Virus genome (UHGV): UHGV-0245401
DNA: 29,189 nt
From: a virus
Strand: one strand, 5' to 3'
Below, in pieces: positions 1,970 to 24,356 of the stretch. Under the pieces are notes generated by a model. It did not search any database. It saw nothing but the letters and a program-made list of their open reading frames with translations, and was not told the DNA's origin. Position 1 is the stretch's first letter. Every line of letters begins with the position of its first letter. Both the position numbers and the translations under genes were made by a program.

Positions 1970-2611
1970 ATGGAAAAAGTTATAATTGAGCTTGATAATC
2001 GTTGGGAGTTAGCTGATTTCGCGGTCTTAACGAAAGAGTATTTGCAGCTATATGGTTTTTTTTATGGCCTAAAAGGAGGATCAAGAGGATATTCAACAAT
2101 GCCTTGGGAGGGTGGGCACAGTGTGGTGAACTTTTTTAGAGGGGCTTACAGTGCGACTCCACCAGATTTACGTCCTGTAGTGAAAAAAATTCAGTATGCC
2201 TCTCCTGGCTTTATTGAATTGTCTGCTCTTATTGATATCTCTTGGCAGATTGCTGAGTTAGTTACTGCTGTTGGTGGAAGTATTCTGGCTGCCAACAAAG
2301 TTTACGATCAGGTGATGCGTACATATCGACAAAGAGAATGGGCAAAGTTGAAATCAGAGAAGCTGCGTATACAGAATCAAATTAAAGAGATTGAACTTGT
2401 TTCTGACGCAGTTAAATCACTTGAATCTGTGATGGCACTTAGTGAAGAACAACGTAAAAACTTGGTTCAACTATCGGGGGCAGATGAACTGGTTCAGTTA
2501 AAGATACTTTTGGCTGTTTACCGACGGTTATCTCCTCTTGTTGAGTTGCAAAACAGCGGGAAAGCTAATTTTTCTGCTGGGAAAAATAAAAATTTAAAAG
2601 CGTCCGATTAA
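1970..2611 (+). CDS. Hypothetical 213-aa protein of unknown function, an AT-rich moron between ogr and attP
   Basis: Uninterrupted 213-codon ORF in a visibly AT-rich island. GGTGG Shine-Dalgarno-like motif about 7 nt upstream of the ATG, with TATACT (-10-like) at 1926-1931. The C-terminal half is rich in K/E/L/Q heptad-like sequence and there is a hydrophobic stretch around aa 80-110. No family recognised. Confidence 0.65.
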   Translation: MEKVIIELDNRWELADFAVLTKEYLQLYGFFYGLKGGSRGYSTMPWEGGHSVVNFFRGAYSATPPDLRPVVKKIQYASPGFIELSALIDISWQIAELVTAVGGSILAANKVYDQVMRTYRQREWAKLKSEKLRIQNQIKEIELVSDAVKSLESVMALSEEQRKNLVQLSGADELVQLKILLAVYRRLSPLVELQNSGKANFSAGKNKNLKASD

Positions 2612-2619
2612 ACGGACGC

Positions 2620-2856
2620 TGAACGATGTGGACGCTATGTGGACAGCGGTTGACATAAATCCATTTATATCATCAGGTTAGGTGCTTTTTTGTGACACCA
2701 TCCCTGTCTTCCCCCACATGATGTGGGGGTTTTTTTTATCAATTACTTACATGCAATCAAAAGTAAAAACAGGTACTTATCGAAAGCTGTAAGGGTTTGG
2801 AGCGGTTTCAAAATTTCTTGAGTGTGGACACTATGTGGACACTCAGAGGGGGAAAT
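2620..2856. other. Putative attP region with integrase arm-type repeats (TGTGGAC-N4-TGTGGACA at 2627-2645 and 2823-2841)
   Basis: Two tandem TGTGGACA-type direct repeats flank about 170 bp directly downstream of the int 3' end. They resemble the arm-type Int sites I recall for P2, but the P2 core sequence itself is not present. Confidence 0.5.
2709..2738 (+). terminator. Hairpin plus T-run (CCCCCACAT-g-ATGTGGGGG-TTTTTTTT); terminator-like, possibly part of the att core
   Basis: Perfect 9-bp inverted repeat followed by eight T residues on the + strand. Confidence 0.5.
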
Positions 2857-4782: not shown

Positions 4783-5279
4783 CAGTGATGACGCTCAATC
4801 TCGTCGAAAAACAGCCAGCAACTATGCGCCGGATAATTGGTAAGCATCTGGCCGTCCCTCGCTGGCAGGATACATGTGATTATTATAATCAGATGATGGA
4901 GCGCGAACGGTTAACGGTTTGCTTTCATGCGCAGTTAAAACAGCGTCACGCAACGATGCGTTTTGAAGAAATGAACGACGTCGAACGTGAACGGCTGGTT
5001 TGTGCAATTGATGAATTGCGTGGGGCATTCTCAAAACGCCGTCAGGTTGGCGCAAGTGAGTATGCATATATTAGTTTTTTAACAGTCAGTCAGCGTCGTA
5101 CTTTATTTATGCATGCCGGATTGACTGAAAAAGAATTCAACCAGCCATACTGGCGAATTAATGAAGAGTCATGTTACTGGCGTGATGCTTTATTCCGTGC
5201 ATTACGTGAATTATTCAGCCTGTTTGAGTATGCACCGACAATTCTGACGTCGGTAAAACCAGAGCAATATCTGCATTAA
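4779..5279 (+). CDS. B: Replication protein B (166 aa)
   Basis: 166-aa ORF, the same length and position as P2 B, overlapping the previous stop (ATGA). Confidence 0.85.
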   Translation: MTVMTLNLVEKQPATMRRIIGKHLAVPRWQDTCDYYNQMMERERLTVCFHAQLKQRHATMRFEEMNDVERERLVCAIDELRGAFSKRRQVGASEYAYISFLTVSQRRTLFMHAGLTEKEFNQPYWRINEESCYWRDALFRALRELFSLFEYAPTILTSVKPEQYLH

Positions 5280-5342
5280 GTAATTAACCAGAGTTTTTAA
5301 CGCACTTAATCGTGCGGGGCTTCTTTTTGCCTGGAGAAAGTC

Positions 5343-5567
5343 ATGCATACAGTTTCTGAAAATCAGTGCGGTAAATACGCATTACTGCTGCAACAGGCCA
5401 GAACCGAAGCACAGGCCGACGCTGCGACGCGCTTTTCTTCTCATCTTGACGCCATGATTCGCCATATCACAAAGGCGGAGTTATCCCGCGTGGAGATAGT
5501 CGAGCTGCTCAGTCAGGAGTCGGAAAAATTTCACAATATCGGATTGTCTCGCGGGGAGGTGCTTTGA
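5343..5567 (+). CDS. Hypothetical early protein in the orf80 position
   Basis: 74-aa ORF with AGGAG-like RBS context (ggagaaagtcATG), in the conserved P2 early-gene position. Confidence 0.6.
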
Positions 5568-6365: not shown

Positions 6366-8631
6366 AGCCTCCGGGCGTTTTGTCCCTCCGTCAGCATTTG
6401 CCGCAGGCACCGGTAAGGCGTTTACCGGTGCTTATGCATGGAACGCGCCACGCGAGGCTGTCGGGCGCGAAAGACCTCTTACACGTGACGAGATGCGTCA
6501 GGTGCAAGGTGTTTTATCCACGATTAACCGCCTGCCTTACTTTTTGCGCTCGCTGTTTACTTCACGCTATGACTACATCCGGCGCAATAAAAGCCCGGTG
6601 CACGGGTTTTATTTCCTCACATCCACTTTTCAGCGTCGTTTATGGCCGCGCATTGAGCGTGTGAATCAGCGCCATGAAATGAACACCGACGCGTCGATGC
6701 TGTTTCTGGCAGAGCGTGACCACTATGCGCGCCTGCCGGGAATGAATGACAAGGAGCTGAAAAAGTTTGCCGCCCGTATCTCATCGCAGCTTTTCATGAT
6801 GTATGAGGAACTCAGCGATGCCTGGGTGGATGCGCATGGCGAGAAAGAATCGCTGTTTACGGATGAGGCGCAGGCTCACCTCTATGGTCATGTTGCTGGC
6901 GCTGCACGTGCTTTCAATATTTCCCCTCTCTACTGGAAAAAATACCGTAAAGGACAGATGACCACGAGGCAGGCATATTCTGCCATTGCCCGTCTGTTTA
7001 ACGATGAGTGGTGGACTCATCAGCTTAAAGGCCAGCGTATGCGCTGGCATGAAGCGTTACTGATAGCTGTCGGGGAGGTCAATAAAGACCGTTCTCCTTA
7101 TGCCAGTAAACATGCCATTCGTGATGTGCGTGCGCGCCGCCAGGCAAATCTGGAATTTCTTAAATCGTGTGACCTTGAAAACAGGGAAACCGGCGAGCGC
7201 ATCGACCTTATCAGTAAGGTGATGGGCAGTATTTCTAATCCTGAAATTCGCCGGATGGAGCTGATGAACACCATTGCCGGTATTGAGCGTTACGCCGCCG
7301 CAGAGGGTGATGTGGGGATGTTTATCACGCTGACCGCGCCGTCAAAGTATCACCCGGCACGTCAGGTCGGAAAAGGCGAAAGTAAAACCGTCCAGCTTAA
7401 TCACGGCTGGAATGATGAGGCATTTAATCCAAAGGATGCGCAGCGATATCTCTGCCGTATCTGGAGCCTGATGCGCACGGCATTCAAGGATAATGACTTA
7501 CAGGTCTACGGTTTGCGTGTCGTCGAGCCACACCACGACGGAACGCCGCACTGGCATATGATGCTTTTTTGTAATCCACGCCAGCGTAACCAGATTATTG
7601 AAATCATGCGTCGCTATGCGCTCAAAGAGGATGGCGACGAAAGAGGAGCCGCGCGAAACCGTTTTCAGGCAAAACACCTTAACCGGGGCGGTGCTGCGGG
7701 ATATATCGCGAAATACATCTCAAAAAACATCGACGGCTATGCACTGGATGGTCAGCTCGATAATGATACCGGTAGGCCGCTGAAAGATACTGCGGCGGCT
7801 GTTACCGCATGGGCATCAACGTGGCGCATCCCGCAATTTAAAACGGTTGGCCTGCCGACAATGGGAGCTTACCGTGAGCTACGTAAATTGCCTCGCGGCG
7901 TCAGCATTGCTGATGAATTTGACGAACGCGTGGAGGCTGCACGCGCCGCCGCAGACAGTGGCGATTTTGCGCTGTATATCAGCGCGCAGGGCGGGGCAAA
8001 TGTCCCGCGCGATTGTCAGACTGTCAGGGTCGCCCGTAGCCCGTCGGATGACGTTAACGAATACGAGGAAGAAGTCGAGAGAGTGGTCGGCATTTACGCG
8101 CCGCATCTCGGCGCGCGTCATATTCATATCACCAGAACGACGGACTGGCGCATTGTGCCGAAAGTTCCGGTCGTTGAGCCTTTGACTTTAAAAAGCGGCA
8201 TCGCCGCGCCTCGGAGTCCTGTCAATAACTGTGGAAAGCTCACCGGTGGTGATACTTCGTTACCGGCTCCCACACCTTCTGAGCACGCCGCAGCAGTGCT
8301 TAATCTGGTAGATGACGGTGTTATCGAATGGAGTGACCCGGAGGTCGTGATGGCGCTCAGGGGCGCATTAAAACACGGACTGAGAACACCAAATCGTCAG
8401 CAAAGAAACGGAAGCCCGTTAAAACCACATGAAATTGCACCATCGGCCAGACTGACCCGGTCGGAAAGAATGCAAATTACCCGTATCCGCGTTGACCTCG
8501 CTCAGAACGGTATCAGGCCGCAACGATGGGAGCTTGAGGCGCTGGCGCGTGGCGCGACCGTAAATTATGACGGGAAAAAATTCACGTATCCGGTTGCTGA
8601 TGAGTGGCCGGGGTTCTCGTTACCCATTTGA
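6355..8631 (+). CDS. A: Replication initiator A, rolling-circle nickase
   Basis: Large ORF with the HUH-type motif …GTPHWHMMLF… and the active-site tyrosine motif …AGYIAKYISKNIDG…. Start taken at MAVKASGRF (6355) rather than the upstream in-frame ATG at 6313. Confidence 0.9.
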   Translation: MAVKASGRFVPPSAFAAGTGKAFTGAYAWNAPREAVGRERPLTRDEMRQVQGVLSTINRLPYFLRSLFTSRYDYIRRNKSPVHGFYFLTSTFQRRLWPRIERVNQRHEMNTDASMLFLAERDHYARLPGMNDKELKKFAARISSQLFMMYEELSDAWVDAHGEKESLFTDEAQAHLYGHVAGAARAFNISPLYWKKYRKGQMTTRQAYSAIARLFNDEWWTHQLKGQRMRWHEALLIAVGEVNKDRSPYASKHAIRDVRARRQANLEFLKSCDLENRETGERIDLISKVMGSISNPEIRRMELMNTIAGIERYAAAEGDVGMFITLTAPSKYHPARQVGKGESKTVQLNHGWNDEAFNPKDAQRYLCRIWSLMRTAFKDNDLQVYGLRVVEPHHDGTPHWHMMLFCNPRQRNQIIEIMRRYALKEDGDERGAARNRFQAKHLNRGGAAGYIAKYISKNIDGYALDGQLDNDTGRPLKDTAAAVTAWASTWRIPQFKTVGLPTMGAYRELRKLPRGVSIADEFDERVEAARAAADSGDFALYISAQGGANVPRDCQTVRVARSPSDDVNEYEEEVERVVGIYAPHLGARHIHITRTTDWRIVPKVPVVEPLTLKSGIAAPRSPVNNCGKLTGGDTSLPAPTPSEHAAAVLNLVDDGVIEWSDPEVVMALRGALKHGLRTPNRQQRNGSPLKPHEIAPSARLTRSERMQITRIRVDLAQNGIRPQRWELEALARGATVNYDGKKFTYPVADEWPGFSLPI

Positions 8632-8846
8632 GTAAAAACACAACGTGATTTGATATGGCATTGAATGGCTTATGCGGAGCAGTTATGGGGCAGCAGAAGG
8701 TCAATAGCATGCTGAATTAGAAGGCTAAATGCTATTGAGTGACTAGCATGTCGGTAAGGACAGCCGTTTGATCCGGGTCATAAAAGGCCATCCATTTAGT
8801 CTAATAAAATCATTGCGGGTAACCTTATGTCGACGCATAATTCGTC

Positions 8847-8861
8847 TTGAGCGAAGTCTTG
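8847..8861 (+). repeat. 15-bp direct repeat TTGAGCGAAGTCTTG, copy 1 of 2
   Basis: Exact 15-mer also found at 9111-9125. Confidence 0.6.
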
Positions 8862-8890
8862 TCAGTCTTTCATCGTATTGATGATGGGCG

Positions 8891-8922
8891 CAAAAAAACC
8901 ACCCTGGCAGGTGGTTTTTTTG
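8891..8922. terminator. Bidirectional intrinsic terminator (A7-hairpin-T7)
   Basis: AAAAAAACCACCCTGGCAGGTGGTTTTTTT: a GC stem flanked by an A-run and a T-run, able to terminate gene A on + and the small ORF on -. Confidence 0.65.
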
Positions 8923-8933
8923 TTTGAAGCATA

Positions 8934-9047
8934 TTAAAGCATAATGCTGACATTGATATTACTGACGTTTACTGACAAACCACTCGGACTACCGTTTGGA
9001 TAGCCAAAGAGGGCCAGAACGAGAATGCAGTAATAGCATTTCTTCAT
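8934..9047 (-). CDS. Small ORF, 37 aa (MKKCYYCILVLALFGYPNGSPSGLSVNVSNINVSIML), with a hydrophobic signal-peptide-like N-terminus
   Basis: Consensus AGGAGG Shine-Dalgarno 4 nt upstream of the ATG on the minus strand, with the bidirectional terminator directly downstream. Sits in the old/tin accessory position. No homolog recognised. Confidence 0.35.
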   Translation of the reverse strand: MKKCYYCILVLALFGYPNGSPSGLSVNVSNINVSIML

Positions 9048-9110
9048 ATTGCCTCCTGTAAGTAGAGGGCAACTTCCACCGGTATATGCGCTTCTTAGGT
9101 GGAATGACTT

Positions 9111-9125
9111 TTGAGCGAAGTCTTG
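9111..9125 (+). repeat. 15-bp direct repeat TTGAGCGAAGTCTTG, copy 2 of 2
   Basis: Exact copy of 8847-8861. Embedded in GACTT-ttgagcg-AAGTC, which has inverted symmetry. Lies about 65-80 nt upstream of the small ORF start. Confidence 0.6.
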
Positions 9126-9525
9126 CCCTGAAATAATGCTCTGTTTAAACGCAAAGTGATTTGGCATATCACCGAACAGAGAGCCGGAAAAACACAACAT
9201 ATAGTATGTCGTTGTTTCTAGGCATACATTCTATGTTGTGTAACAAGGGCTTTGCATTAAACATGTTTGAGATTTTATTGATGTAGCTCAAAGTAAAAAA
9301 CAGAGACTACGGATGATAAGGTCTTGAAAGCAATGTAAATTTTTTAAAGTTGCCAATTGCTTAAAAATGTACAGTTGCGGTATGGCGTACTTAAAAAGCT
9401 ATGCATGCAACAAGTGAATGTTTTTGCATGCGTTGGGGATGTCCGTTCAGGCGGCGTGCGGTCAGGACTGGTGCGGATCCATAGTATCTATGCAACTGCA
9501 TTAAAACCGCCCCGTGAAGCGGGCG

Positions 9526-9544
9526 GGCGAGGCGGGGAAAGCAC
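9526..9544. other. cos: cos, the 19-nt cohesive end sequence GGCGAGGCGGGGAAAGCAC
   Basis: Exact match to the P2 cohesive-end sequence as I recall it. Located just outside the portal gene Q, as in P2. Confidence 0.7.
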
Positions 9545-9685
9545 TGCGCGCTGGCGGTGGTGCTGATTTTATTTTTTCAGCGTCTGAGCGCGTCGTGATG
9601 GCGTTTAGATTGTTCGCCGGGGCGTTGGTGTGTCTGCGGGCTGTTTTGTGCGGTGGTGAGCGTGTGAGGGCGTGATGGCGGGGTG

Positions 9686-9710
9686 TAAAAAAGCCGCCCG
9701 CAGGCGGCGA
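9686..9710 (-). terminator. Terminator-like hairpin after Q on the minus strand
   Basis: On the minus strand, GCCGCC-tgcgg-GCGGC followed by TTTTTTA immediately after the Q stop. Confidence 0.5.
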
Positions 9711-9713
9711 TGT

Positions 9714-10748
9714 TCAGCCGTTGTCAGTGTCCAGTGAGTAGTTTTTAAAGCGGATGACCTCCTGACCGAGCCAGCCGTTTATTTCCCGAATCCTGTCCTG
9801 TAACGGGATTAGCTCATTGCGGACAAAGACCTTTGCCACTTTCTCAATATCGCCCAGTGACCCGACGTTCTCCGGCTTGCCACCCATCAACTGAAAGGGG
9901 ATGCGGTGTGCGTCCAGCAGGTCAGCGGCGCTGGCTTTTTTGATATTAAAAAAATCGTCCTTCGTCGCCACTTCACTGAGCGGGATAATTTTAATGCCGT
10001 CGGCTTTCCCCTGCGGGGCATAGAGAAACAGGTTTTTAAAGTTGTTGCGGCCTTTCGACTTCACCATGTTTTCGCGAAGCATTTCGATATCGTTGCGATC
10101 CTGCACGGCATCGGTAACGTACATGATGTATCCGGCATGTGCGCCGTTTTCGTAATACTTTCGGCGGAACAGCGTGGCCGACTCATTCAGCCAGGCAGAA
10201 TTAAGGGCGCTGAGATATTCCGGCAGGCCGTACAACTCCTGATTAATATCCGGCTCCAGCAGGTGAAACACGGAGCCGGGTGTGAAGGCTGTCGGCTCGT
10301 TGAAGGACGGCACCCACCAGTAAACATCCTCCTCCACGCCACGGCGGGTATATTTTGCCGGTGAGGTTTCCAGTCTGATGACCTTACCGGTGGTGCTGTA
10401 ACGCTTTTCCAGAAACGCATTACCGAACACCAGAAAATCCAGCACAAAACGGCTGAAATCCTGCTGGGAAAGCCACGGGTGCGGGATAAACGTTGAAGCC
10501 AGAATATTACGTTTGACGTAAATCGGTGAGCTGTGATGCACGGCAGCACGCAGGCTTTTTGCCAGACCGGTAAAGCTGACCGGCGGCTCATACCATCTGC
10601 CGTTACTGATGCACTCGACGTAATCCAGAATGTCACGGCGGTCGAGTACCGGCACCGGCTCGCCAAAGGTGAATGCTTCCATTTTCGGGGCGCTGGCGGT
10701 GATTGTTTTTGCCGCAGGTCGCGGTGTTTTCCCTTTTTTCTTGCTCAT
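9714..10748 (-). CDS. Q: Portal protein gpQ (344 aa)
   Basis: 344-aa ORF starting MSKKKGKTPRPAAKT…, matching P2 Q from memory. Adjacent to cos and upstream-overlapped by P. Confidence 0.93.
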   Translation of the reverse strand: MSKKKGKTPRPAAKTITASAPKMEAFTFGEPVPVLDRRDILDYVECISNGRWYEPPVSFTGLAKSLRAAVHHSSPIYVKRNILASTFIPHPWLSQQDFSRFVLDFLVFGNAFLEKRYSTTGKVIRLETSPAKYTRRGVEEDVYWWVPSFNEPTAFTPGSVFHLLEPDINQELYGLPEYLSALNSAWLNESATLFRRKYYENGAHAGYIMYVTDAVQDRNDIEMLRENMVKSKGRNNFKNLFLYAPQGKADGIKIIPLSEVATKDDFFNIKKASAADLLDAHRIPFQLMGGKPENVGSLGDIEKVAKVFVRNELIPLQDRIREINGWLGQEVIRFKNYSLDTDNG

Positions 10749-19944: not shown

Positions 19945-20853
19945 ATGCCGATTATCGACCTGAACCAGCTACCCGCACCGGATGTGGTCGAGGAGCTGGA
20001 CTTTGAAACCATTCTTGCCGAACGCAAGGCGACACTGATTTCCCTTTACCCGGAAGACCAGCAGGAGGCGGTCGCCCGTACCCTGACGCTGGAATCTGAG
20101 CCTCTCGTCAAACTGCTGGAGGAAAATGCTTATCGTGAGCTTATCTGGCGTCAGCGTGTGAATGAGGCCGCACGGGCGGTGATGCTGGCCTGTGCCGCCG
20201 GTAATGACCTTGATGTGATTGGTGCCAATTACAACACCACGCGCCTGACTATCACCCCGGCAGATGATTCGACCATCCCGCCGACACCGGCAGTGATGGA
20301 GTCTGACACCGATTATCGTCTGCGTATTCAGCAGGCGTTTGAAGGTTTAAGCGTCGCCGGGTCGGTGGGTGCCTATCAGTATCATGGCCGCAGTGCCGAC
20401 GGGCGTGTCGCGGATATTTCTGTCACCAGTCCGTCTCCGGCCTGCGTCACTATCTCTGTGCTGTCACGTGAAAATAACGGTGTCGCATCCGAAGACCTGC
20501 TGGCCGTGGTGCGTAACGCCCTGAATGGCGAGGACGTCAGGCCGGTGGCCGACCGCGTGACCGTGCAGTCTGCCGCCATCGTTGAATACCAGATAAACGC
20601 CACGCTTTACCTTTACCCTGGTCCCGAAAGCGAACCCATCCGCGCTGCCGCCGTGAAAAAACTGGAAGCGTATATCACGGCACAGCACCGGCTGGGGCGC
20701 GATATCCGTCTGTCTGCCATTTATGCCGCTTTGCATGTGGAAGGTGTGCAGCGTGTCGAACTGGCTGCACCGCTGGCTGACATCGTGCTCAACAGTACGC
20801 AGGCGTCTTTCTGTACCGAATACAGCGTCGTGACCGGAGGCTCGGATGAGTGA
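19945..20853 (+). CDS. J: Baseplate protein gpJ (302 aa)
   Basis: 302 aa, in the P2 J position. Confidence 0.9.
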   Translation: MPIIDLNQLPAPDVVEELDFETILAERKATLISLYPEDQQEAVARTLTLESEPLVKLLEENAYRELIWRQRVNEAARAVMLACAAGNDLDVIGANYNTTRLTITPADDSTIPPTPAVMESDTDYRLRIQQAFEGLSVAGSVGAYQYHGRSADGRVADISVTSPSPACVTISVLSRENNGVASEDLLAVVRNALNGEDVRPVADRVTVQSAAIVEYQINATLYLYPGPESEPIRAAAVKKLEAYITAQHRLGRDIRLSAIYAALHVEGVQRVELAAPLADIVLNSTQASFCTEYSVVTGGSDE

Positions 20854-21457
20854 TTCGCGACTGCTGCCGACCGGCTCATCACTGCTTGAAGTTGCCGCCG
20901 CAAAAGCCTGTGCGGAAATTGAAAAAACGCCGGTCAGTATTCGTGAGCTGTGGAACCCGGACACCTGCCCGGCAAATCTGCTGCCGTGGCTGGCGTGGTC
21001 ATTTTCGGTTGACCGCTGGGATGATAAATGGCCGGAAGCGACAAAACGCGCTGTTATCCGCGATGCGTATTTCATTCACTGCCATAAGGGCACTATAGGC
21101 GCAATCCGGCGTGTGGTGGAGCCGCTCGGCTATCTGATTGAGGTGAGGGAGTGGTGGCAGCTCAACGAGGAGCCGGGGACGTTCCGTATCGTTGTTGGCG
21201 TGCTTGAGCAGGGTATTACCGAAGAAATGTATCAGGAGCTGGAGCGCCTAGTTGCTGATGCAAAACCGGCAAGCCGCCATCTGACGGGACTGGCTATCAG
21301 TTTAAGTACAACCGGCAACATTTTTGCCGGTGCGGGATGCTATCACGGTGACGCCCTGACGGTTTATCCCTACACCCCGGAGGCCATTATTGTCGGAGGG
21401 GATTATTTCCCGGCCTCGGCCATTCATTTAATTGATAACCTGAGAGTAAACGCATGA
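20846..21457 (+). CDS. I: Baseplate protein gpI
   Basis: [22 protein letters not shown]…, overlapping the J stop. Confidence 0.88.
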
Positions 21458-22614
21458 CAGTGAAATACTACGCCATTCTGACTAATCAGGGCGCAGCACG
21501 GCTGGCTAACGCGACGATGCTCGGCAGTAAGCTGAATCTGACGCAAATGGCCGTTGGTGATGCGAATGGTGTCTTGCCGACACCAGACCCGGCACAGACA
21601 AAACTGATTAACCAGAAACGCATCGCGCCGCTGAATCTTCTGAGTGTTGACCCGAACAACCAGAGCCAGATTATTGCGGAGCAAATCATCCCTGAGAACG
21701 AGGGCGGATTCTGGATCCGTGAGATTGGGCTTTATGATGATGAAGGCGTACTCATTGCGGTGGCGAACTGCCCGGAAACGTACAAACCGCAGTTGCAGGA
21801 AGGCAGTGGTCGTACCCAGACTATCCGCATGATTCTGGTTGTCACGAATACCGAAGCTATCACGCTGAAAATCGACCCGTCGGTGGTACTGGCGACCCGT
21901 AAATACGTGGATGATGAAGTCCTGGAATTAAGGCTGTATGTGGATGACCAGATGAGAAACCACATTGCCGCACAGGATCCTCATACCCAGTATGCGCAGA
22001 AACATAATCCGACATTTACCGGAGAACCAAAAGCGCCGACGCCTGCCGCAGGAAATAACACCACGCGGATTGCGACCACTGCGTTTGTTCAGGCCGCTAT
22101 TACCGCTCTGATTAACGGTGCGCCAGCCACGCTGGACACACTGAAAGAAATTGCCGCAGCCATTAACAATGACCCGAAATTCAGTACCACCATTAACAAT
22201 GCGCTGTCAGGTAAGCAGCCACTGGATGAGACGCTGACTCATTTGAGTGGAAAGGATGTAGCTGGTCTTCTCGCATACCTTGGTTTGGGAGAAGCGGCAA
22301 AACGGAATGTGGGAACAGGGGAAAATCAGATACCTGATATGTCATCATATGCATCAGGTTCAGGCTGGCGAAAAATGCCAGATGGTTCAATTGAACAGTG
22401 GGGACGAATTAGTTTTCCTGGTGAACACGGGCCTGTATCCGCCAATGTTTCATTCCCGATTCCATTTACACAGACACCGGGCATTGTAATTGTGTGCGAT
22501 GGTGGTTTCGGGGGCGGGAATATGTGGGGGGCGACCAACTGGAGCACTACCGGCTTCATAGCTCACTGCAATTATGGTCTTGAAGGTGGTGCGTTTTTCG
22601 CTAAGGGCTGGTAA
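21454..22614 (+). CDS. H: Tail fibre protein gpH (386 aa): conserved N-terminal part plus a variable C-terminal tip encoded inside the invertible segment
   Basis: N-terminus [42 protein letters not shown]… is the conserved P2-family H domain. The C-terminal ~115 aa lie beyond the crossover site at 22268-22293. Confidence 0.88.
22268..22293 (+). other. hix/gix-like 26-bp inversion crossover site inside H (TTCTCGCATACC-TT-GGTTTGGGAGAA)
   Basis: Two 12-bp half-sites with 10/12 dyad symmetry around a central TT. Its 3' 14 bp are identical to the inverted partner at 24093-24118. Confidence 0.65.
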
Positions 22615-23057
22615 TGATGAAATATCTGTACGTAAACAACCTGGCATATCCTTACGAACTTCAGTCTCTTTATGTTGAAAAAGGTGAATGGCCTGAAGAA
22701 AAAGGTGTTGATATAGACGAAGTAATTTTCAGGGAATATTTCTATGACACACCACCAGAAGGAAAATACAGATGTGTTGGAGAAGATGGACTGCCTGCAT
22801 GGGCAGATATTCCTCCACCAACACGTGAAGAACAAATTGCATCAGCCGAAACTAAAAAGCAGCAATTGATTAATCAGGCCAACGATTATATGAACAGTAG
22901 ACAATGGGTTGGTAAAGCGGCTATTGGTCGTCTGAAAGGTGAGGAACTGGCGCAATATAATTTGTGGCTGGATTATCTGGACGCACTGGAGCTGGTCGAT
23001 ACTTCCAGTGCACCAGATATTGAATGGCCTACTCCTCCGGCAGTTCAGGCCAGATGA
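22614..23057 (+). CDS. G: Tail fibre assembly chaperone (Tfa, P2 G-like), paired with the currently expressed fibre tip
   Basis: 147 aa with a C-terminal Tfa signature …LWLDYLDALELVDTSSAPDIEWPTPP…. AT-rich 5' half. Confidence 0.85.
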   Translation: MMKYLYVNNLAYPYELQSLYVEKGEWPEEKGVDIDEVIFREYFYDTPPEGKYRCVGEDGLPAWADIPPPTREEQIASAETKKQQLINQANDYMNSRQWVGKAAIGRLKGEELAQYNLWLDYLDALELVDTSSAPDIEWPTPPAVQAR

Positions 23058-23640
23058 CATCCGGCGCGGTGCTGGTATCTGTTGCCGTCACCGCGTCAAT
23101 GTAATCCAGCACCGTGTTAAGTCGGCTGGTTTCTGCCTGCGTCAGATTCCGTCCGGCCCGTAATTTCAGTTGAATCAGACTGATGGAAGCCATTGCAGTA
23201 TCAATCAGCGACTGGCGTTGTGCTTCTGCTGCATCTACTGCGGCGCTATGCTGTGCATCGGTATCCGTCACCCATTTCTCACCATCCCATTTATCGTATG
23301 GTGTTAACGGGGCGATAGTGGTTGTATTATCAGGGTAATCACCCGGAGCTGTGATTTCTTTTGATTCTCCTGTTTCGGTGCTAAAGACGATTTCACCGCG
23401 ATGGTCTGGCACATATTCCCATGAGTTAAAATCTGCAGAACGGCAGATTGCATAACCAGCCTTATGTGTAACTGGTGCATCTAAACAAGAACATGCCGGG
23501 ATACCGACGCCAACCGTAAGATATTCAGTTGATGTGGAAATATATTCCCGCGTTTCTCCGTTGTAGTTGTAAACGGTAATGAAGCCAGCCTCTGTGGCAA
23601 ATCCGTTTTCATCCAAAGTGATTTTTTTTGTGGTCATCAT
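23029..23640 (-). CDS. Alternative tail fibre assembly chaperone (Tfa') on the opposite strand inside the invertible segment
   Basis: 203 aa with a C-terminal Tfa signature …LNTVLDYIDAVTATDTSTAPDVIWPELPEE. Convergent with G and overlapping it by 29 bp. Confidence 0.8.
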   Translation of the reverse strand: MMTTKKITLDENGFATEAGFITVYNYNGETREYISTSTEYLTVGVGIPACSCLDAPVTHKAGYAICRSADFNSWEYVPDHRGEIVFSTETGESKEITAPGDYPDNTTTIAPLTPYDKWDGEKWVTDTDAQHSAAVDAAEAQRQSLIDTAMASISLIQLKLRAGRNLTQAETSRLNTVLDYIDAVTATDTSTAPDVIWPELPEE

Positions 23641-24146
23641 GCTGCCCTTACAATGTAGTTAAATGCAATGTTACGTGGCCTTGTTTCTGCTGATGTTCTT
23701 GCACTCCTGGATAAATCAAGTGTCACACCATAGTAACTAAATGCATTACCAGTTGATGGAGCGGCATATTTAACCCCAGAACTAGAACCAACATTAAAAA
23801 CTCCAGATGCTGAGGAAGCTGACCCCATAGTGTTATCAATCAGAGAACCCGTAACATTTTGCATAGCGTCAAGTTGTTCGCTTAATAAAGCGCGTCCACT
23901 ATCAACATCACGCCCGTCATCCCAGCCACGAATAAATTCACCTCGTAAATCAGGCAATTTATTTGTCGGATAAGCCTTTGCCAGTTCCGGGTATTCTTCA
24001 GCAGAAAAAAACGCACCGTTGCATTTCAGCCAGCCTGTTGGCGGAGTGGTGGAAGGCCACGGAACAGGCACGCCAACGGGTAATGCCGAACCTTCTCCCA
24101 AACCAACGTTTAAGAAAATGCAGAGATTACGGCTAACTGGCATCAT
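23637..24146 (-). CDS. Alternative tail-fibre C-terminal tip (Hv'), promoterless in this orientation
   Basis: …LPDLRGEFIRGWDDGRDVDSGRALL…RPRNIAFNYIVRAA resembles variable tail-fibre tips of Mu/P1-type invertible systems. Its 5' end carries the partner crossover site in the same frame (…GLGE…) as in H. Confidence 0.7.
   Translation of the reverse strand: MMPVSRNLCIFLNVGLGEGSALPVGVPVPWPSTTPPTGWLKCNGAFFSAEEYPELAKAYPTNKLPDLRGEFIRGWDDGRDVDSGRALLSEQLDAMQNVTGSLIDNTMGSASSASGVFNVGSSSGVKYAAPSTGNAFSYYGVTLDLSRSARTSAETRPRNIAFNYIVRAA
24093..24118 (-). other. hix/gix-like inversion crossover site, inverted partner of 22268-22293
   Basis: The minus strand reads TTTTCTTAAACG-TT-GGTTTGGGAGAA. The right half is identical to the site in H and the left half is a degenerate copy. 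Confidence 0.6.
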
Positions 24147-24173
24147 CCCCGGTTTTTATTCAGGGGATCCATC

Positions 24174-24356
24174 ATGCTTATTGGCTATGTCCGCGTGTCA
24201 ACAAATGACCAGAATACGGAATTGCAGCGTAACGCGCTGGAGTGCGCAGGATGTGAGCTGATTTTTGATATTGGCCTGTCCACGCTCTATAAAAAATTCC
24301 CCTCATCAGCGACAAAGAATAAATTGTGTCATCCCTTAGCCAACCGGGACAAATAG
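24174..24356 (+). pseudogene. Remnant of a Hin/Gin/Pin-family serine DNA invertase with an in-frame internal deletion, 60 aa remaining
   Basis: N-terminus MLIGYVRVSTNDQNTELQRNALECAGCELIF matches the invertase N-terminus including the catalytic serine, and is fused directly to a C-terminal …LSTLYKK… segment. About 130 aa of catalytic and dimerisation domain are missing. Confidence 0.75.

Follow-up and report, generated by a model that had tools for sequence, protein, structure and literature searches.

A P2-like phage carries an invertible tail fibre cassette beside a deleted invertase gene and occurs in both orientations

The tail fibre gene H and its chaperone gene in this P2-like (Peduovirus) phage very probably form the expressed arm of a Gin/Cin/Pin-type invertible cassette that has lost its own invertase and is switched in trans. 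We analysed the whole 29,189-nt stretch of the virus genome UHGV-0245401, hereafter the window. The cassette and its neighbours are arranged as follows.

20846-21457, + strand: gene I, P2 baseplate protein I family (Pfam Tail_P2_I, E = 1e-55)
21454-22614, + strand: tail fibre gene H, full open reading frame (ORF), 386 aa
21454-22279, + strand: Hc, constant part of H, residues 1-275 (PF12571, E = 2e-62)
22268-22293, unstranded: left 26-bp crossover site, TTCTCGCATACC TT GGTTTGGGAGAA, an inverted repeat inside H
22280-22614, + strand: Hv, variable tip of H now in frame, 106 aa (gp53-like, PF21882, E = 2e-6)
22614-23057, + strand: tfa, tail fibre assembly protein paired with Hv, 147 aa (PF02413, E = 3e-33)
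23029-23640, - strand: tfa', second tail fibre assembly protein, TfaE-like, 203 aa (PF02413, E = 1e-32)
23637-24106, - strand: Hv', alternative tip with a Phage Tail Collar domain (PF07484, E = 8e-15), StfE/HK97-Stf-like
24093-24118, unstranded: right 26-bp crossover site, TTCTCCCAAACC AA CGTTTAAGAAAA, inverted partner of the left site
24174-24356, + strand: remnant of a Pin-family serine DNA invertase, 60 aa, from alignments with the pro483 invertase gene, PinE and Gin
24195-24258, unstranded: candidate Fis-dependent recombinational enhancer region, homologous in position

The two crossover sites are of the pix type. They have an inner half in common, which is also that of e14 and of a P1-like plasmid, and a single base separates the right site from its counterpart in the e14 P segment. 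The window contains just two copies of the site 14-mer, inverted relative to each other, where 0.03 would be expected. The left site encodes H residues 272-280, in agreement with the first-pass annotation, which had placed a crossover at residue 270/271. Between the sites, a 1.83-kb segment holds two tip-plus-chaperone modules in opposite orientations. That annotation delimited a unit containing one of these modules; the other, inverted one lay outside it, as did the dead invertase.

In the orientation of the window, tfa' is silent and Hv' is a promoterless ORF that continues to 24146. A promoter and terminator scan of the region was uninformative, with promoter signals not above shuffled expectation. 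The product of tfa' shares 87% identity with e14 TfaE, and the gene about 95% nucleotide identity with the HK97 stf/tfa region. Hv' is 57% identical to e14 StfE, and about 90% identical over the first 100 aa. Inverting 22280-24106 in silico fuses Hv' in frame to Hc, generating a 431-aa protein, H', followed by tfa'; the fibre then ends in a collar-domain tip of 155 aa, whose chaperone is 203 aa long. Exactly this 431-aa H' is annotated in MNCRE44. The layout is that of the Mu S/U-S'/U' type, with a constant N-terminus outside the segment and two opposed tip-plus-chaperone modules inside, both of which can be read in frame. The crossover site within H joins the constant part to one or other of the two tips.

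Beside the right site, only a remnant of a serine invertase is present rather than an intact gene. It corresponds to residues 1-31 and 169-197 of a 197-aa invertase, separated by a 411-bp in-frame deletion that is flanked by perfect 11-bp direct repeats, with the junction at the repeat CTGATTTTTGA (24258-24268). The lost 411 bp encoded most of the catalytic domain, together with the E helix and a portion of the HTH domain. The Pfam Resolvase match is confined to remnant residues 3-35, and what is retained shares 85% identity with PinE. In MNCRE44 and LD27-1, this remnant is annotated by RefSeq as an incomplete recombinase.

The deletion stops right at the border of the enhancer-homologous stretch, and both crossover sites are retained. 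Two candidate Fis cores (G-N13-C; 24195-24209 and 24244-24258), centred at 24202 and 24251 and thus 49 bp apart, are also conserved in Mu gin and e14 pinE, and the nearer of them is 96 bp away from the centre of the crossover site. The hin enhancer spans 65 bp with a Fis site at each end, about 100 bp from the hix site (PMC3798978). The candidate enhancer may be functional. The 411-bp deletion has destroyed the phage's own invertase and spared the sites together with the enhancer-homologous stretch.

Both orientations are found in near-identical phages. The window, L019 and L034 share one orientation, while MNCRE44 and L037 have the opposite one. The prophage in MNCRE44, a finished genome, differs from the window by one SNP in 29 kb and by an exact inversion of 22280-24109. 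The isolate contig L034 (112 kb) has the same orientation as the window and matches it at 100% identity across 7.6 kb, and the metagenome contig L037 has identical flanks around an inverted segment; the flanks of L034 and L037 show zero mismatches. The inversion breakpoints fall within 22280-22294 and 24092-24109, that is, in the sites. A scan of IMG/VR for the deletion junction gave a single contig, L019. Junction-pattern scans mostly retrieved more distant P2-like fibres sharing a conserved 17 nt after the site, so that they gave no usable orientation counts. Draft assemblies do break at such repeats, and the L019 scaffold has a gap exactly at the right crossover site, but an assembly artefact is hardly credible as the source of the difference: each orientation is present in several independent assemblies, including MNCRE44 and L034, and an artefact would need reads of both orientations, which would itself be a real inversion. 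The fibre gene of one assembly is consequently one of two receptor-binding states, and the same phage stands in databases with a 431-aa H.

MNCRE44, L034 and L037 all carry the 60-aa invertase remnant. The presence of both orientations despite a dead invertase implies flipping in trans, and switching would need a Pin-family invertase from another prophage in the cell. We infer that the flipping enzyme is supplied by a co-resident element. Invertible fibre cassettes of P2-like prophages and trans-acting Pin invertases have both been published: inversion was seen experimentally in P2-like prophages of EPEC (PMC4272514), and PinQ of prophage Qin was shown to invert the e14 P segment in trans (PMC12529663). 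Of 5426 complete E. coli genomes, 3280 contain cassette-related DNA, at a median of 2 places per genome, indicating that helper invertases are common. A point against this reading is that in MNCRE44 the first 50 kb of each of the two large plasmids, pMNCRE44_5 and pMNCRE44_6, show only Tn3-type resolvases, and within this coverage no helper invertase was found for any host of the phage. The e14-like contig L036, from the same metagenome as L037, was set aside as a helper because its invertase reads as frameshifted, possibly through an assembly error. RecA-mediated inversion was rejected, because apart from the 14-bp half-site the breakpoints share no inverted homology.

An unlikely alternative is that the invertase deletion locked the switch, and that the two orientations predate two independent deletions arising by slippage at the 11-bp repeats. 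The perfect direct repeats flanking the deletion fit such slippage, and at least five different cassettes have this 411-bp deletion next to them. The deletion may therefore recur at the repeats, which weakens the argument for a single origin. Moreover, ECJXMCRH7 has an intact invertase allele with 100% identical flanks. Against this, no intact-invertase copy of exactly this phage was found, the window and MNCRE44 are a single SNP apart, and the flanks of L034 and L037 have no mismatch. Two identical deletions would be needed, compared with one deletion and one inversion in trans, the latter being an experimentally demonstrated reaction (PMC12529663). We therefore favour inversion in trans.

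The cassette is shared between phage backbones. An e14-like prophage of E. coli M8 has a cassette that matches positions 22269-24268 at 97.2% identity, with homology beginning at the crossover site. The segment is 99.9% identical to the cassettes of L036, a prophage contig with an e14/Mu-like tail (22280-24111), and of L038, whose backbone is uncharacterised (22280-24109), and both copies start and stop precisely at the crossover points. In a P1-like plasmid, the C-segment region matches 22277-23678 at 94% identity. These matches, starting at or near the crossover site, bear out the earlier suggestion of exchange with Mu/P1/e14-type fibre cassettes. P2-like, e14/Mu-like-tail and P1-like elements have whole cassettes in common, and the breakpoints fall at the crossover sites.

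If trans-acting invertases recombined DNA at these sites, this would account for identical 1.83-kb cassettes that stop exactly at the central dinucleotides in elements of the P2-like, e14/Mu-like-tail and other kinds. We tentatively propose, with somewhat less than even confidence, that a widespread P2-like E. coli prophage lineage has lost its invertase to the 411-bp deletion, and that the invertases of co-resident prophages drive both its orphan host-range switching and the transfer of whole cassettes between unrelated backbones. If flipping in trans is true, host-range switching would depend on the other prophages in the same cell, an idea that ties in with recent work in which prophage invertases act on each other's segments. 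For host-range prediction or engineering of P2-like phages and tailocins, the whole cassette must be read, beyond H and its chaperone.

The constant part of the fibre is P2-like over most of its length. Gene I shares 82% aa identity with P2 I over 175 aa, dropping towards the C-terminus; it is P2-like to about 21282, where the P2 nucleotide match stops in the 3' third of the gene, and then diverges and ends in a 28-aa extension. H follows directly after gene I and begins with a Phage_tail_fib domain (PF12571, residues 1-150), the domain and position of a P2 gpH-type fibre. In BLASTP, residues 26-258 are 42% identical to P2 H, and residues 175-280 form another aligned block, against P2 H 246-364, up to the crossover site; Hc thus contains the shaft motif common to P2 H residues 246-364. 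The likeness to P2 therefore reaches beyond the N-terminal domain, to which the first-pass annotation had restricted it. Hc is 97% identical in nucleotide sequence to phage pro483, with the match extending to 22352. In Pfam searches, Phage_fiber_2 (PF03406) and Gp34_trimer (PF21446) were absent from the window's H, while P2 H has PF03406 twice and also PF21446. Residues 1 to about 275 would attach the fibre to the baseplate.

The ORF call and the length of P2 H (2010 nt, 669 aa) uphold the reported lengths of 386 aa against about 669 aa, a difference of 283 aa. The description of H as shortened holds only in this sense of comparison with P2, as the gene is not truncated: the prophage EA2 has a collinear 386-aa H, 99% identical, beside an intact invertase. 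That H is a truncated, decaying fibre gene of a defective prophage, as its length and the adjoining invertase pseudogene might suggest, is accordingly most improbable. Its ORF is intact with complete N-terminal and tip domains, and pro483 H is similarly short at 399 aa. The tip and chaperone stretch 22294-23028 is 100% identical at the nucleotide level in nine listed genomes; the three contexts examined represent three different backbones. Furthermore, none of the 33 checked coding sequences is disrupted, and the window represents the genome in its excised, circular form.

The expressed tip resembles R-type pyocin fibres. Its match to PF21882 scored 28.6 bits (cutoff 24.9), and phmmer matched it to the R2 pyocin fibre 6CT8 (E = 8e-4). 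An AF2 model of Hv has an overall pLDDT of 73, with 76-93 in the core, and its best Foldseek matches are the R1/R2 pyocin fibres 6CXB, 6CT8, 6CL5 and 6CL6 (E about 2e-4, TM about 0.5). On this model, which is of moderate confidence, Hv is predicted to be a gp53-like/R-pyocin-type lectin-like beta-sandwich. It is presumably the receptor-binding domain, and the tips would bind LPS or another sugar receptor.

The chaperone gene tfa overlaps H through ATGA. Up to about 22845 it encodes an N-terminal domain that is variable and AT-rich, whereas the C-terminal domain is conserved and TfaP-like, in an alignment with e14 TfaP and TfaE, Mu U, P2 G and pro483 Tfa. Both tfa and tfa' have the PF02413 domain, a position directly 3' of the fibre gene, and a variable N-terminal and conserved C-terminal domain, as expected of Caudo_TAP chaperones. 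The label G-like given to tfa is right as to family, since P2 G is also Caudo_TAP, but BLASTP detected no pairwise similarity between P2 G and tfa. A sequence search of the PDB with tfa gave no match. The alignment supports a modular build of these chaperones, and roles of the TFA domains have been published (PMC9608196). Each tip would travel with the variable N-terminal domain of its own chaperone as one AT-rich module.

Base composition sets the cassette apart from the tail genes. The 22 late genes have a GC content of 0.570 ± 0.024 and a GC3 of 0.66 ± 0.046. Hc is at 0.52 (GC3 0.57), the H tip past the crossover at 0.50 (GC3 0.41, z = -5.4) and tfa at 0.43 (GC3 0.32, z = -7.4). Within tfa, GC is 0.389 in 22614-22900 and 0.506 in 22901-23057. 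The tip and chaperone are thus AT-richer than the tail genes, 22614-22900 especially, just as had been noted by eye. The AT-rich island goes on beyond 21454-23057, the stretch first annotated, and takes in the whole invertible segment to about 24150, with GC3 of 0.45 in tfa' and 0.30 in Hv'.

A GC3 5-7 SD below that of the late genes could mean that the tip and chaperone were recently acquired from a donor of low GC content that is not part of the enterobacterial phage pool. We consider this very unlikely, because identical or near-identical modules are present in E. coli prophages and plasmids, and because comparable segments are equally low in GC: 0.452 in the Mu G segment, 0.456 in the e14 P segment, 0.439 in the C-terminal part of P2 H and 0.438 in P2 G. 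The AT skew is therefore an old property of the shared gene pool rather than a sign of recent foreign origin.

Among known systems, the cassette is close to the e14 P segment with PinE in E. coli K-12 (stfP-tfaP/tfaE-stfE-pinE). The arms are 1797 nt apart in the window, equal to the published e14 size (PMC12529663), the inner half-sites are the same with a single-nucleotide difference in the right site, and the C-terminal domain of tfa is nearly identical to that of TfaP. By contrast, e14 has a 93-aa constant stub where the window has the P2-type 275-aa Hc with its Phage_tail_fib domain, the window's expressed tip and that of StfP share only 29% identity, and the window's invertase is deleted. 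Phage pro483 and P2-like prophages with an H-tfa/tfa'-Hv'-invertase cassette, such as that of E. coli EA2, have the same gene order between I and FI. Both retain an intact 197-aa invertase, and pro483 has another gp53-like tip and another chaperone N-terminal domain.

The Mu G segment with Gin and the P1 C segment with Cin follow the same logic, with a constant part, two inverted tip-plus-chaperone modules, 26-bp sites and an adjacent serine invertase gene whose 5' end holds an enhancer, for which the window has a candidate. They differ in their much longer tips and intact invertases, and the gix sites of Mu have another sequence, TTATCCAAAACC TC GGTTTACAGGAA. P2 gpH/gpG share with the window the family of the N-terminal domain, the position after gene I, the chaperone family and an AT-rich tip and chaperone. 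However, P2 H has two Phage_fiber_2 repeats and a C-terminal region of roughly 300 aa with the Gp34_trimer domain, and P2 is without a crossover site, second module or invertase. R-pyocins are P2-related tails, and the C-terminal region of the R1/R2-type fibre is the best structural and sequence match of the H tip, although at about 20% identity and a TM of 0.5.

The tail-fibre gene H contains one of two inverted crossover sites, and the segment between them carries a second fibre tip and chaperone on the opposite strand. The features are as follows.

21454–22614, plus strand: H, an ORF of 386 aa
22268–22293: left crossover site, TTCTCGCATACC TT GGTTTGGGAGAA, an inverted repeat within H codons 272–280
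22614–23057, plus strand: chaperone, an ORF of 147 aa overlapping the end of H via ATGA
23029–23640, minus strand: second chaperone (tfa′), Caudo_TAP, 203 aa, 87% identical to e14 TfaE
23637–24106, minus strand: second tip (Hv′), with a collar domain, StfE/HK97-Stf-like
24093–24118: right crossover site, TTCTCCCAAACC AA CGTTTAAGAAAA, the inverted-repeat partner of the left site
24174–24356: invertase remnant, an ORF of 60 aa, aligned with the 197-aa intact invertase of the P2-like phage pro483

A 14-mer common to both sites occurs in the window only at these two positions, in inverted orientation, with 0.03 occurrences expected. Both inner half-sites match those in the invertible e14 P segment and in a P1-like plasmid exactly, a single base separates the right site from its e14 counterpart, and the annotated ends of the Mu G segment coincide with the centres of the corresponding Mu sites. 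The plus strand between the sites encodes the H tip and then its own chaperone; inversion of 22280–24106 in silico yields an in-frame alternative fibre of 431 aa (H′) with the second chaperone directly behind it. Together these elements make up a pix-type invertible tail-fibre cassette of the standard kind, carried by a P2-like phage, and inversion within this class has already been observed in EPEC prophages (PMC4272514).

Pfam assigns H residues 1–150 to Phage_tail_fib (E = 2e-62), residues 307–374 to a gp53-like C-terminal domain (E = 2e-6), the 147-aa chaperone to the Caudo_TAP tail fibre assembly proteins (E = 3e-33) and the gene upstream of H to the P2 I family. As the first-pass annotation had noted, H is shorter than its P2 counterpart (669 aa); the two share the N-terminal domain, but window H lacks both Phage_fiber_2 repeats and the Gp34_trimer domain of P2 H. 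The accompanying claim that only the N-terminal domain is P2-like did not hold. BLASTP aligned residues 26–258 with P2 H at 42% identity and paired residues 175–280 with P2 H 246–364 in a second block, so the distant likeness to P2 reaches the crossover point. Divergence from P2 begins upstream of H, within the 3′ third of gene I. A defective H was ruled out: Escherichia coli prophage EA2 has a collinear 386-aa H (99% identical) adjoining an intact invertase, pro483 H is 399 aa long, all 33 window genes checked are intact, and the window represents a complete P2-like genome in its excised, circular state.

Base composition was compared with the 22 late genes of the window (GC 0.570 ± 0.024, GC3 0.66 ± 0.046). 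The constant part of H has a GC of 0.52 and a GC3 of 0.57 (z for GC3 of −2.0), the tip 0.50 and 0.41 (z = −5.4), and the chaperone 0.43 and 0.32 (z = −7.4), with 0.389 and 0.28 in 22614–22900. This bears out the earlier remark that tip and chaperone are AT-richer than the tail genes; the AT-rich island is, however, not limited to 21454–23057 and runs on to ~24150, across the second chaperone gene (GC3 0.45) and the second tip (GC3 0.30). GC is equally low in the Mu G segment (0.452), the e14 P segment (0.456) and P2's own H C-terminal part (0.439) and G (0.438). AT-richness is therefore a trait of the shared fibre-tip gene pool and no sign of recent foreign origin.

In alignments, the variable N-terminal part of the chaperone, the most AT-rich stretch, changes together with the tip, and its last 70 aa are conserved and resemble TfaP. 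This sequence pattern fits the division of labour described for TFA proteins, in which a variable N-domain binds the fibre and a conserved C-domain trimerises (PMC9608196). In the chaperone alignment, P2 G and Mu U (L003 4248–4775 and L014 2976–3503) are near-identical over their full length, each only ~25% identical to the window chaperone. An AlphaFold2 model of H residues 260–386, built from 27 sequences, reached a pLDDT of 73 overall and 76–93 in its beta-sandwich core. R1/R2 pyocin fibres, in their C-terminal region, were its best structural match (E about 2e-4, TM about 0.5), in agreement with a phmmer match of the tip to 6CT8, and several lectins came next. On account of these resemblances, the receptor of the modelled tip is likely a saccharide such as LPS.

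Exchange with Mu/P1/e14-type cassettes, as initially proposed, is supported to the base by matches in other elements.

Window 22269–24268: e14-like prophage at dusA in E. coli M8, 97.2% identity, starting at the crossover site
Window 22280–24111: prophage contig with an e14/Mu-like tail (L036), 99.9%
Window 22280–24109: contig with an uncharacterised backbone (L038), 99.9%
Window 22277–23678: P1-like plasmid with the cassette in the silent position, 94%

The L036 and L038 megablast matches end within a few bases of the central dinucleotides, and outside the segment neither contig matches the window at megablast sensitivity. The tip and chaperone are also shared, without change, by another P2-like lineage, whose H has 460 aa. 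L036 derives from the same metagenome (3300045988) as L037, a copy of the window phage with the segment inverted, and carries an identical 1.83-kb cassette. Its Pin-type invertase (4892–5500) reads as frameshifted near residue 135, through either a genuine frameshift or a mistake in assembly.

Alignment with the pro483 invertase shows a 411-bp gap in the remnant, which falls between two copies of CTGATTTTTGA and leaves residues 1–31 and 169–197; these residues share 85% identity with PinE and 72% with Gin. Judged from this sequence, the phage's own invertase is dead. The hin enhancer spans 65 bp, with a Fis site at both ends, ~100 bp from a hix site (PMC3798978). The window has two candidate Fis cores, centred at 24202 and 24251, the nearer 96 bp from the crossover-site centre, and the deletion repeat starts at 24258. 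We infer that a stretch positionally homologous to the Fis enhancer survives.

Both orientations were nevertheless recovered. Circularly permuted, the window corresponds to a prophage of E. coli MNCRE44 located between cpxP and fieF (47-bp att overlap, window 2694–2740), from which it differs by one SNP in 29 kb and the exact inversion of 22280–24109. The window orientation recurs in an isolate contig (L034, 100% identical across 7.6 kb) and an IMG/VR contig (L019), and the inverted one in the metagenome contig L037, with identical flanks. The same 60-aa remnant is present in all four. L019 (IMGVR_UViG_2671180841_000012, 8190–8215) is interrupted by a scaffold gap, NN, precisely at its right crossover site; the five bases preceding the gap match the alternative, inverted junction, a hint that both orientations were present in the isolate sequenced. 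The sole unusual aspect is an orphan switch, with the invertase deleted, the cis-acting sites kept and both orientations found in nature.

The simplest account would be one 411-bp deletion followed by inversion of the segment in trans. Such inversion is biologically plausible because PinQ of prophage Qin inverts the 1797-bp e14 P segment (PMC12529663) and cassette-related DNA is common in E. coli (found in 3280 of 5426 complete genomes, with a median of two places in each). It is also possible that the deletion arose repeatedly and independently at the 11-bp repeats: among the 60 best-ranked complete E. coli records, 25 carry the deleted allele, which adjoins at least five different fibre cassettes (loci L004, L008, L010, L011, L012 and L030), and an intact allele with identical flanks exists. 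In one deleted-allele type (TL-14, AR_0137), the second chaperone and the right crossover site are missing as well. Together, these observations suggest a decay series, recurrent deletion or both.

Elsewhere in the genome, ogr and the att core flank a 213-aa ORF of low GC (0.399; 1970–2611, plus strand). The ORF matches the C-terminal two thirds of the PADLOC profile PD-T4-10_B (E = 1e-34), with no Pfam or PHROG match and no evident partner gene, making it a candidate for an anti-phage defence gene, sited at a hotspot for P2 cargo. P2 also has cargo genes between replication gene A and the portal gene. In the window this interval holds ~1.1 kb of AT-rich DNA (8631–9714, GC down to 0.36) with no ORF larger than 88 aa. 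The window sequence begins within the tail gene region and not at cos, which presumably lies in 8631–9714.
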